Assembly: GCA_013288105.1 (NCBI GenBank) | Contig: JABDCM010000001.1 | Coordinates: 55,659 to 119,658 of the forward strand | DNA: 64,000 nt | Reading direction: 5' to 3' | Origin: Chlamydiota bacterium | Lineage (GTDB): Bacteria; Chlamydiota; Chlamydiia; Chlamydiales; JAAKFR01 | Part shown: piece after piece, positions 32,471-34,876 of the stretch | How the letters are laid out: each line of letters opens with the position of its first letter | Position numbering within the stretch: position 1 is the stretch's first letter | Made by a program: the position numbers and the translations under genes | The notes under the pieces: model-generated | What the model was told of the DNA's origin: nothing | Seen by the model: only the letters and a program-made list of their open reading frames with translations | The model's database searches: none

Positions 32471-32553
32471 GCTCGGGTGGTGGAATGGTAGACACTAGGG
32501 ACTTAAAATCCCTTGGAGGCAACTCCGTGAAGGTTCGAGTCCTTTCCCGAGCA
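32471..32553 (+). tRNA. tRNA-Leu (anticodon TAA)
   Basis: Acceptor GCTCGGG/CCCGAGC, D-arm GGTGGAATGGTAGACAC, anticodon loop CTTAAAA, long variable arm, T-loop GGTTCGAGTCC. No encoded CCA. Confidence 0.92.
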
Positions 32554-32581
32554 TTTTCTCTCGAGAAAAGACCTAATACTA

Positions 32582-33712
32582 CTAAGCTTGATAAATAGGA
32601 TTCAGCCATGAACGAATCTTAATCCAAGTTCCAGGATAAGCTATAATACCATAATGTCCCAGCCAAGAATATATTCTGTTATTGTTTTGGCTCTCTGTAA
32701 GTATACTGGAGGCTCCTGGCACCATGAAATCGGTTGTTGAGCCGATGGAATAATAGGTGCGTTTTCTAGTTGTATCTGATTCCAATGCTGTTTTAGCAAG
32801 GGCGGTTAAAAAATCATTATTTTCGGTCATCTGTGTATATCGTTTTGGTTTTTCATTTTCGTCTTTGCAATTGAGTAAAGGAGCCCCATGCCATGGAGTT
32901 GCAATCGAAATCACATGGTTAACAGTGGTTCCGTCCTCCTCAGCACAGTGTTCAGCATAGTAGGCTGCAACCAGGCCGCCCATAGAGTGACCCATGAGAA
33001 TCACCTCATTCTGTCCTGTGAGTTGCTTTATTTCACAAATTTTATCTCGAATCTTGCCTCGGGCATAATCATCTACCCCCATATGATGTTCATTGCTAGC
33101 CAAGCCATCCAAGTTCAATGTAAAGACAGAGCCATATGCCTCTTTACTTAACCAGGGCCAAGAGGCTACCCATTCAATTTCACAAAAACCAGAACCATGA
33201 ATTTGGAGAATTGCGATCTTATTTTTCTTTGGATTGCTGGAATCATAGTTAGATTTACAACATGCGATTAATAGAAGAATGGCTGCCACTGGTAAAAAGG
33301 CAATATCAAGGGCTGTAGAAAGAATGACTCGTGGCACCCGGGTTGCTGTCTCAAACATTCTATCAAATCTTGTTTTGGGGTTCACCCTCTCTTCCTTCTG
33401 AAGAAGTTCCTTTGAATGAATGGGGCCTGCCAATTTTGCTAGAGCTGTGCTGGTTACATACCCTCCTACGATTACGCCAATACATCCATTTCTTCCAAGA
33501 GCGGTAACTGTAGATTTCAACCATAAAGGGAGTGCATTATGAGGAGCGGCAAGACCGATTGATCCAAGAGTCAAGCCCACAGAAAATAAAATAATGGCTA
33601 TTGCAAATAGGGTTACTGCACATGCTCTTTTGGGATGTTGTTGTTGAGCTACAAGATCATTTCGAGCAAGTGAAGGGGTGAGATGTGCTGTTGCTGCTAA
33701 AGAATCTGCCAT
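32582..33712 (-). CDS. Membrane-anchored alpha/beta-hydrolase (lipase/esterase-like) with an Inc-like bilobed hydrophobic N-terminus
   Basis: Nucleophile elbow GHSMGG. Two adjacent hydrophobic helices at about residues 30-100 (VTLFAIAIILFSVGLTLGSIGL...CIGVIVGGYVTSTAL). Confidence 0.7.
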   Translation of the reverse strand: MADSLAATAHLTPSLARNDLVAQQQHPKRACAVTLFAIAIILFSVGLTLGSIGLAAPHNALPLWLKSTVTALGRNGCIGVIVGGYVTSTALAKLAGPIHSKELLQKEERVNPKTRFDRMFETATRVPRVILSTALDIAFLPVAAILLLIACCKSNYDSSNPKKNKIAILQIHGSGFCEIEWVASWPWLSKEAYGSVFTLNLDGLASNEHHMGVDDYARGKIRDKICEIKQLTGQNEVILMGHSMGGLVAAYYAEHCAEEDGTTVNHVISIATPWHGAPLLNCKDENEKPKRYTQMTENNDFLTALAKTALESDTTRKRTYYSIGSTTDFMVPGASSILTESQNNNRIYSWLGHYGIIAYPGTWIKIRSWLNPIYQA

Positions 33713-33903
33713 CTCTATTAACCATCCATTTATTGAATTACTGTACTAAAATTATATAAATAATAATAATAAAATTCAATTATAAAAAAATGTTTTATTT
33801 CAGATAGTTGTGTCATGAATAAAAGTTAGTTTAATATAAAATCAAAAAAGTCTTATATACATTTGAACCTTTTGACCCTTTCGCAAACCACACATTTTCA
33901 AAT

Positions 33904-34275
33904 TTACTTGCCGAGAGCGGCGATTCTAGCATTAGAAGGGGAATCTCCAATTATAGTGCTGCCATGACCACGATGAGAAGAGGGGGTGATCTTGATGTAA
34001 ATGTCTTGGCCAAGATCGTTTAGGAATCGGAATAGACGTTCCATAGAGAAACTTTTTAAATAGCCTCGGAGTAGTAAAGAAACTTTAGGTTGGGTGATCT
34101 TGAGGATTGCAGCAACGCGTTTTTGAGTCAGTTTACGCTTCTTGATGATTTTAGCAATCTCCCAAGCAAGCTGTGCTTTGGCTAGAGCTTCTTCGGGATT
34201 GGCAAGGCCCAAATCAGCAAACACATTGCCTGAGCCGATTTCATATTCAACATCACCGAGCTTCTTCTTTTTCAT
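33904..34275 (-). CDS. XRE-family HTH antitoxin (HigA-like)
   Basis: MKKKKLGDVEYEIGSGNVFADLGL...LTQKRVAAILKITQPKVSLLLRG...SMERLFRFLNDLGQDIYIKI, the typical antitoxin partner of Gp49/HigB-like toxins. Confidence 0.75.
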   Translation of the reverse strand: MKKKKLGDVEYEIGSGNVFADLGLANPEEALAKAQLAWEIAKIIKKRKLTQKRVAAILKITQPKVSLLLRGYLKSFSMERLFRFLNDLGQDIYIKITPSSHRGHGSTIIGDSPSNARIAALGK

Positions 34276-34620
34276 TCTATTTCCTTCAGAATTTTTTTTG
34301 CTTCTGCTAAACGTTTTTTTTACTAATTCCATCTCTTGTTGAGGAGTGGCAATACCACTCTTCGATTTCTTTTGGAAGGCATGTAATACGGCTATGTATC
34401 CCTTAAATTCCACCGTATACACGACTCGAAAGGTTCCGTTCGAGTTGTTTTCTATAATCTCTCGAACCTTTGCATTTCCAAAGCCTTTTAAGACTTTGGA
34501 AGAGGGAGGAATTTCACCCTCTTGAGCACCCCATAAAGCAAAGCCCACAGATCGTTGTACTCTGTCAGGGAATTCTTTTAAGTCAGCCTTGCTACGTCCA
34601 ATCCAAACGATTTGCTTCAT
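34272..34620 (-). CDS. RelE/ParE-superfamily toxin (phage Gp49/HigB-like); as assembled it is fused in frame to the antitoxin
   Basis: MKQIVWIGRSKADLKEFP...FRVVYTVEFKGYIAVLHAFQKKS. One fewer A in the A8 run (34314-34321) gives ...KKRLAEAKKILKEIE-stop, with a TGA/ATG overlap onto the antitoxin. Confidence 0.7.
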
Positions 34621-34823
34621 GCTGTTCCAATACCTGCATTTCTTGTGCTCGATTATACCCATTTGGGGATATTTCTGGCAAGGGGCGATGGGACATAGGT
34701 GGGACAGCAACATCGTATAACTCGCAATCTAGAATCACGCATTATAATAATTATTTTAATGCAAATTGCTGTAAATTACACTGATAGATATCGAAATGTA
34801 TTGCTTGCAGTTGAATTCCTGCT

Positions 34824-34876
34824 GACTTAAAATCTCTTGGAGGCAACTTGGTGAAGTTCGAGTCCTTTCCCGAGCA
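34824..34876 (+). repeat. Degenerate direct repeat of the 3' half of tRNA-Leu (putative att remnant)
   Basis: GACTTAAAATCTCTTGGAGGCAACTTGGTGAAGTTCGAGTCCTTTCCCGAGCA matches tRNA positions 32500-32553, with 3 substitutions and 1 indel. Confidence 0.85.

Follow-up and report, generated by a model that had tools for sequence, protein, structure and literature searches.

What does a truncated copy of a tRNA gene mark when it lies 2.27 kb downstream of the intact gene? The question arises in a stretch of 64,000 nucleotides from a Chlamydiota bacterium (assembly GCA_013288105.1, contig JABDCM010000001.1, positions 55,659 to 119,658 of the forward strand), which as a whole we call the window and number from its first letter. 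An intact tRNA-Leu(TAA) gene at 32471–32553 is followed, at 34824–34876 and in the same orientation, by a copy of its own 3′ part, and the two enclose an islet of three genes. An earlier note on this DNA, made from the sequence alone, had explained the arrangement as an integrative element that decayed and lost its integrase. The repeat has a sharp boundary, no integrase is present, and integrases as well as fragments with the same boundary recur at the same tRNA in related genomes. We consider it likely, with a probability of roughly 0.8, that the islet is a decayed, integrase-less remnant of an anticodon-loop-type integration into tRNA-Leu(TAA), similar to a cis-mobilizable element (CIME).

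An intact tRNA-Leu gene and its displaced 3′ copy

The tRNA-Leu(TAA) gene on the plus strand was recovered by Rfam (RF00005, 57.6 bits) at 32471–32553, bounds that give the canonical 7-bp acceptor stem, and by ARAGORN at 32470–32554 as one of two tRNA genes within the window. When the tRNA was compared with the window by blastn, the sole further significant match was at 34824–34877, where positions 31–85 (ARAGORN numbering) aligned with 92.7% identity over 55 columns (E = 4e-15). Rfam, blastn and alignment thus bear out the earlier description of an intact tRNA gene followed by a plus-strand 3′ fragment at 34824–34876 that differs from it by three substitutions and a single-base deletion. Identity opens at the junction GA/CTTAAAA, 2 nt 5′ of the anticodon loop, and extends to the tRNA 3′ end. 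The 11-nt sequence GACTTAAAATC, which includes the anticodon loop, is unchanged in both copies, and the final 22 nt of the fragment, GTTCGAGTCCTTTCCCGAGCAT, comprising the 3′ strand of the T-arm and the acceptor strand, match the tRNA exactly. We designate the fragment attR, one of the two attachment (att) copies; the 3′ part of the intact gene, 32500–32553, is the identity block on the attL side and was presumably supplied by the element.

The 45 nt immediately 5′ of the fragment showed no resemblance to the 5′ half of the tRNA beyond that of shuffled sequence or random stretches of the window (p = 0.64), and because of this the fragment has to be regarded as a 3′-only copy with a sharp 5′ edge. 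A decayed copy of the complete tRNA gene was ruled out on the same ground. Neither ARAGORN nor Rfam called a tRNA at 34824–34876, and a profile of 68 chlamydial tRNA-Leu sequences did not detect an additional fragment in the 64 kb.

A fragment so well preserved at its 3′ end might be retained because it has a function, either as a signal for tRNA-like processing or for termination ahead of the following gene, which encodes a NAGPA (DUF2233) protein, or as the source of a small RNA. The perfect conservation of the last 22 nt and the distance of only 59 bp to the NAGPA start codon would both suit such a role. However, none of the changes in the fragment is compensatory: two variable-arm pairs are disrupted by CC to TG, and one strand of the T-stem is a base shorter through the deletion. 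The lack of a tRNA score from ARAGORN and Rfam also speaks against a role of this kind, as does a terminator scan that was empty at the fragment, and the NAGPA homologues in two other loci (L004 and L087) have no fragment upstream. We regard retention for a function as highly improbable.

The same tRNA gene receives integrases in related genomes

To place the islet in context, we used 80 related loci, obtained by scanning species-representative genomes with an alignment of PF28261-family proteins. The protein encoded upstream of the tRNA belongs to this family, of which we found over 1,300 homologues; those that carry a name come from Chlamydiae, and the best non-self identity is about 60%. 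In 67 of the 80 loci, tRNA-Leu(TAA) follows rpoA-rplQ-gapA-PF28261 on the same strand. The downstream side shows almost no conservation among the related loci, and with a conserved upstream and a variable downstream region the tRNA therefore marks the boundary between stable and variable DNA.

An integrase (PF00589) or a remnant of one lies just 3′ of the tRNA in 16 of these 67 loci. In L071, the first open reading frame (ORF) past the tRNA encodes an integrase N-terminus that is interrupted by an insertion sequence (IS) element; with this fragment as the query, a further 15 loci proved to have a homologue directly 3′ of the tRNA. Thirteen of the integrases are full-length, at about 355 aa, and can be aligned throughout with invariant R, HxxR, H and Y catalytic positions, which assigns them to one family. 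A Pfam scan of four integrases returned Phage_integrase in every case (E = 1e-29 to 1e-34), and the closest solved structures were tyrosine integrases, among them the catalytic domain of the HP1 integrase (PDB 1aih, E = 5e-14).

Displaced fragments were sought by querying each related locus with its own tRNA. Eleven loci have a direct 3′ copy between 0.2 and 7 kb downstream, and in 8 of these, as in the window, the identical part begins with (G)GACTTAAAA and continues as far as the 3′ end. With an integrase, a fragment or both at 25 of 67 loci (about 37%), the tRNA-Leu(TAA) gene after gapA-PF28261 is, by the record of these genes and repeats, a recurrent integration site across the sampled environmental Chlamydiae. 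Several of the relatives' fragments are 100% identical to their tRNA; that of the window, at ~7%, ranks with the most diverged ones. In L071 and L037, fragment and resident tRNA differ in the variable arm, GGGGGCAACCCC against GGGAGCAATCCC, a compensated change of a G-C to an A-T pair. Such a change is expected if the copy carried by the element (attP) and the copy of the host (attB) are both functional alleles.

A number of observations weigh against an integrative origin of the islet. The earlier note had seen no integrase, and this holds for the whole window: a tblastn search of all six frames of the 64 kb with 16 integrases from related loci revealed neither an integrase nor a pseudogene (best E = 0.07). 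Composition and codon usage, which that note had put forward as a check for foreign origin, did not set the islet apart from the backbone. The GC content, GC3 and codon-usage distance of the lipase gene within it are those of the window means, and its toxin–antitoxin (TA) genes deviate only mildly for genes of such length. No empty site was found among the scanned genomes, the nearest of which have ~70–76% RpoA identity, or in a metagenome scan for NAGPA. When the right end of the islet (34690–34823), its AT-rich gap and the flank beyond the fragment were compared with the related loci, no shared element-end sequence was detected. Finally, tRNA and fragment carry one and the same T-stem allele (GAAGG/CCTTT), which elsewhere occurs only in L074 among the aligned relatives examined; it follows that the donor shared this tRNA allele, unless the copy was produced locally.

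A local origin would make the 53-bp copy a partial tRNA duplication produced by illegitimate recombination or slippage, with no part played by an integrase and no relation to a mobile element. The missing integrase, the lack of a compositional anomaly in the window and the common T-stem allele all agree with this. A random copy, however, is not expected to end at the tRNA 3′ end or to start at a known crossover sublocation, and at least eight independent lineages show fragments with these same limits, opening 2 nt ahead of the anticodon loop and closing precisely at the 3′ end, with integrases at the same tRNA in 16. Local duplication appears very unlikely to us. The integrative element with a lost integrase, as first proposed, is well supported by the comparison with relatives, in which 16 integrase loci, 11 fragment loci and the compensatory change in L071 and L037 stand beside the lack of an empty site.

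Islets without integrase are common at this site

The intervals between tRNA and fragment in related loci differ in size and content. L001 (11247–11568) has a tRNA and a 54-nt fragment that are 100% identical and 186 bp apart with no gene between them, and is an almost completely emptied islet. The L080 interval holds a GNAT gene and a HigBA-like pair, and that of L074 a pair with a Panacea-like antitoxin, recognized by eye from the translation. One gene each is present in L043 and L076, a nuclease-like gene in L035 and a 52-aa integrase stub in L039. In L071, which has a fragment too, the IS-cut integrase is followed by six ORFs of 118–471 aa; from their translations, by eye, we read these as transposase, restriction or defence genes and an AbiE-like TA pair. 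Given the range of sizes among the intervals that lack an integrase, internal deletion that spares both att copies is a regular fate at this site. TA pairs are frequent survivors in the intervals, and the islet of the window fits the series.

Some related loci are more complicated. The 7-kb interval of L079 (11665–17607), with a fragment of 98% identity and no tyrosine integrase, contains by eye an IS607-type TnpA/TnpB-like pair of 203 and 531 aa, together with four ORFs resembling amino-acid metabolism genes and a regulator. In L043, a second pair of small genes, BrnT/BrnA-like by eye, lies just past the tRNA fragment; this pair and a cyclase gene (PF04199) that follows it take up 12861–13359 and 13611–14303. 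L004 repeats the last 17 nt of its tRNA with ~50 nt of flank 129 bp further on (11594–11660 versus 11723–11789), beside a run of N, and has a separate 14-nt piece, GACTTAAAATCCCT, 3.5 kb downstream (15113–15126), so that its repeat structure is complex. Homologous lipase-like proteins of ~505 aa with a FAHSQG motif are encoded inside the interval of L037 (11107–12636) and just outside the fragment of L071 (18071–19579), a placement that may reflect more than one insertion at the site, stacked or in succession. We tested these large proteins for kinship with the lipase of the window and found them unrelated.

The hydrolase gene of the islet

All three genes of the islet lie on the minus strand and read toward the tRNA. 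The content listed in the earlier note, a lipase gene, an AT-rich gap and a TA pair between the repeats, was recovered by Pfam and by composition. The first gene past the tRNA (32582–33712) encodes an alpha/beta-hydrolase of 376 aa, which we refer to as the lipase, with Pfam matches to PGAP1, Abhydrolase_1, LCAT and Lipase_3 and a GHSMG motif at residue 241. Hydropathy shows hydrophobic stretches at residues 27–58 and 127–156, with N-terminal hydrophobic segments put at about 30–57 and 130–153, and the hydrolase is predicted to be membrane-anchored. It had been described as Inc-like; Inc proteins are marked by a bilobed hydrophobic domain of ~40–60 residues near the N-terminus and by type III secretion, and for the hydrolase the comparison covered the two hydrophobic stretches.

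The stop codon of the lipase gene is 28 bp from the tRNA end, which therefore leaves no room for an integrase remnant there. Within this gap, between the tRNA 3′ end and the stop codon, lies a palindrome, TTTTCTCTCGAGAAAA (32554–32569), which could be a terminator-like hairpin shared by the two convergent genes. On the other side of the lipase gene is a spacer of 191 bp with 20.9% GC (33713–33903). It contains a promoter-like TTGAAT-17-TATAAT that would serve the lipase gene, reading from 33779 to 33751 on the minus strand.

Lipase orthologues were found at 64–83% identity, and the two with a readable context (L081 and L082, 64–66%) sit elsewhere. That of L081 adjoins unrelated genes, and that of L082 (4016–5220, 66%) lies between a cyclase-type sensor gene and frr-pyrH-tsf-rpsB. 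To judge by these positions, the lipase gene is an accessory gene without a fixed place. The L082 orthologue is convergent with tRNA-Lys(TTT), as the window lipase gene is with tRNA-Leu, and stops 13 bp short of the 3′ end of that tRNA gene. A tRNA-Lys fragment repeat was sought at this locus and not found.

A separately mobile toxin–antitoxin cassette

The other two genes of the islet form a TA operon. An XRE-type HTH_37 antitoxin of 123 aa is encoded at 33904–34275 (PF13744, E = 9e-25, minus strand) and a Gp49/RelE-superfamily toxin at 34276–34620 (PF05973, E = 4e-20, minus strand), behind a strong promoter-like site, TTGCCA-18-TATAAT, that reads from 34681 to 34652. The antitoxin is 88–92% identical in amino acid sequence to the partner genes in L083–L086. 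After frame correction, the toxin has homologues of 115 aa with 86–90% identity, which end in KKRLAEAK..LKEIE and have their own stop codon. This far exceeds the RpoA identity among related loci (53–76%).

By blastn to other genomic contexts, we delimited a cassette of 807 bp, operon plus promoter, at 33904–34710 on the minus strand. It is 88.1% identical at the nucleotide level to L083, on a contig with 48.5% GC, housekeeping neighbours (PFK, GcpE and LeuRS) and no tRNA, and 82.7% identical to L085 and L086, whose contigs have 37% GC and are rich in HicAB, IS and, in L085, Tn3-type genes, with RelE genes as well. The segment that L083, L085 and L086 have in common with the window is exactly the operon and its promoter. 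Since a closely similar cassette occurs in unrelated contexts, it should be able to move on its own and need not have come with the integrative element. By this distribution the cassette is a separately mobile module. Neither inverted repeats nor target duplications were found to flank it.

The ORF list of the window shows toxin and antitoxin as a single frame of 269 aa. We traced this to a +1 frameshift in an A-run of the toxin gene (T8 on the plus strand, 34314–34321), which replaces the last 13 residues and fuses the frame to the antitoxin. In a DNA alignment with L083 and L085, the homologues have GTAAAAAAGCG at this site (V K K R), with the stop in a 4-nt ATGA overlap, and the window has GTAAAAAAAACG. 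The frameshift is either real decay, leaving a pseudogene or a fusion, or a homopolymer assembly error. Unless it is an assembly error, it probably inactivates the toxin.

The present genes need not have arrived with the att sites. The att scar could be real and the original element almost wholly deleted, as in L001, with later entry, by other routes, of the TA cassette and possibly also of the lipase gene. This would account for a discrete 807-bp module that is 88% identical in a 48.5%-GC contig without a tRNA and 83% identical in a transposon-rich contig; L001 keeps its two att copies with only 186 bp between them, and the lipase has orthologues at unrelated positions and a backbone-like codon usage. 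Yet no inverted repeats or target duplications surround the cassette, and att-bounded islets at this site typically have TA pairs among their cargo (L080, L074 and L071). Later entry, which differs from arrival with the element only in timing, is possible but we think it rather doubtful. Of the earlier proposal that the lipase and TA genes are cargo of the element, what stands is that this is plausible: the lipase gene is non-syntenic but backbone-like in codon usage, and the separately mobile TA cassette possibly arrived independently.

A proposed history of the islet

Under the integrative reading, an element whose tyrosine integrase targeted the anticodon-loop region of tRNA-Leu(TAA) would have inserted into the gene. 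Before insertion, the empty site would have had position 32499 joined to 34824 onward, that is, the tRNA followed by TCTCATTATCTGTGG. The tRNA 3′ copy brought by the element would have rebuilt the gene now seen at 32471–32553 and pushed the original 3′ part to the far end, 34824–34876. An internal deletion would then have taken out the integrase and most of the element, leaving the 2.27-kb islet between attL and attR. The hydrolase gene and the TA operon would have persisted, the addictive TA operon favouring retention, and later decay would have brought drift of the fragment (~7%, including the structure-breaking changes) and the frameshift in the toxin gene. We infer the order of these events, the arrival of the present genes with the element and an integrase of the same family as in relatives.

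Genes beyond the fragment and a 23S rRNA gene with putative introns

The earlier note had further suggested that the DUF2233/NAGPA and carrier-family genes just beyond the fragment belong to an older, larger insertion. This was not borne out: the profile of 68 sequences gave no second fragment, and homologues of these genes are found downstream of the tRNA in L004 (the only such case among the related loci) and, for NAGPA, away from it in L087. The latter, the sole locus with NAGPA from the metagenome scan, has 68% identity and no tRNA nearby. Further downstream, the window encodes a cyclase (PF04199, 36898–37632). Homologues of it lie 2.5–8.6 kb downstream of the tRNA in L015, L017 and L043, the last being 73% identical and located after the BrnT/BrnA-like pair. 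Found downstream of tRNA-Leu in four lineages, the cyclase gene may be the ancestral neighbour.

Outside this region, the 23S rRNA match of the window (57930–62260) spans 4,331 nt compared with a model of 2,925 nt. Two sub-threshold group I intron matches lie within it, at 59888–60561 (E = 4e-8) and 61626–61895 (E = 0.0055); the first overlaps an ORF of 169 aa (60083–60592), a candidate that could encode a homing endonuclease. The 23S gene of the window appears to be interrupted by introns.

Implications and comparison with known systems

The islet alone is an ordinary genomic scar, and the most useful by-product of its analysis is the finding that Chlamydiae use the site repeatedly. This makes tRNA-Leu(TAA) a place where gene flow in obligate intracellular bacteria can be mapped concretely, with inserts that include TA and defence genes. 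More speculatively, and with some doubt, a single lineage of chlamydial tyrosine integrases might use tRNA-Leu(TAA) as its landing pad throughout the phylum, and the integrase-less islets might be CIMEs whose crossover core is still usable and which incoming elements could pick up in cis. If this were true, it would offer obligate intracellular bacteria that share a host cell a route to exchange TA, defence and membrane-effector genes. An integrase family with a defined att site could also be tried as a source of site-specific integration tools for chlamydiae, which are genetically hard to manipulate. A good part of such events will escape island finders that depend on an integrase. A literature search, the coverage of which was incomplete, returned no account of the tRNA-Leu(TAA) gene after gapA-PF28261 as a phylum-wide hotspot.

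The TA operon has the properties of type II systems with a Gp49 toxin and an HTH_37 antitoxin: both domains are present, the genes are adjacent and co-oriented with the toxin upstream of the antitoxin, and a promoter-like site precedes them. It differs in that the frames are fused by the +1 frameshift, where such systems have two separate intact frames.

The attachment site of phage HP1 of Haemophilus influenzae lies at the anticodon stem-loop of a tRNA-Leu gene. The integrases of the relatives match the catalytic domain of the HP1 integrase, a similarity at the level of the tyrosine recombinase family only. Unlike HP1, neither the window islet nor the related islets examined contain phage genes.

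Islands next to tRNA genes have been described in Chlamydiae: Pam100G of Protochlamydia amoebophila UWE25 adjoins tRNA-Gly (PMC548262), and PnaD_GI1 of P. naegleriophila Diamant lies close to a tRNA-Leu (PMC5010888). They resemble the loci studied here as chlamydial islands beside tRNA genes that have integrases or integrase pseudogenes and direct-repeat flanks, but they are larger, at 7–100 kb.

The arrangement in the window corresponds to the anticodon-centred attP class (class A) of the Islander work, in which the island regenerates the gene and a displaced fragment marks its far end (PMC4383910, citing Williams 2002, PMC100330). As in such islands, there is a regenerated tRNA at one end, a direct 3′ fragment at the other and identity from the anticodon stem-loop to the 3′ end, and relatives of the window carry an integrase immediately 3′ of the tRNA. 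In contrast to them, the window islet has no integrase, is only 2.27 kb long and gives no compositional signal, and Islander-style filters that demand an integrase would reject it.

CIMEs, defined as elements that have lost their integration and transfer genes and kept attL and attR (PMC5704250), provide the closing comparison. The window islet differs from them in that comparison with the integrase-bearing elements of related loci brought out no shared sequence and in that its hosts are obligate intracellular Chlamydiae, not streptococci. It is like them in that it is bounded by att copies, has neither recombinase nor transfer genes and occupies a site at which relatives carry integrase-bearing elements.

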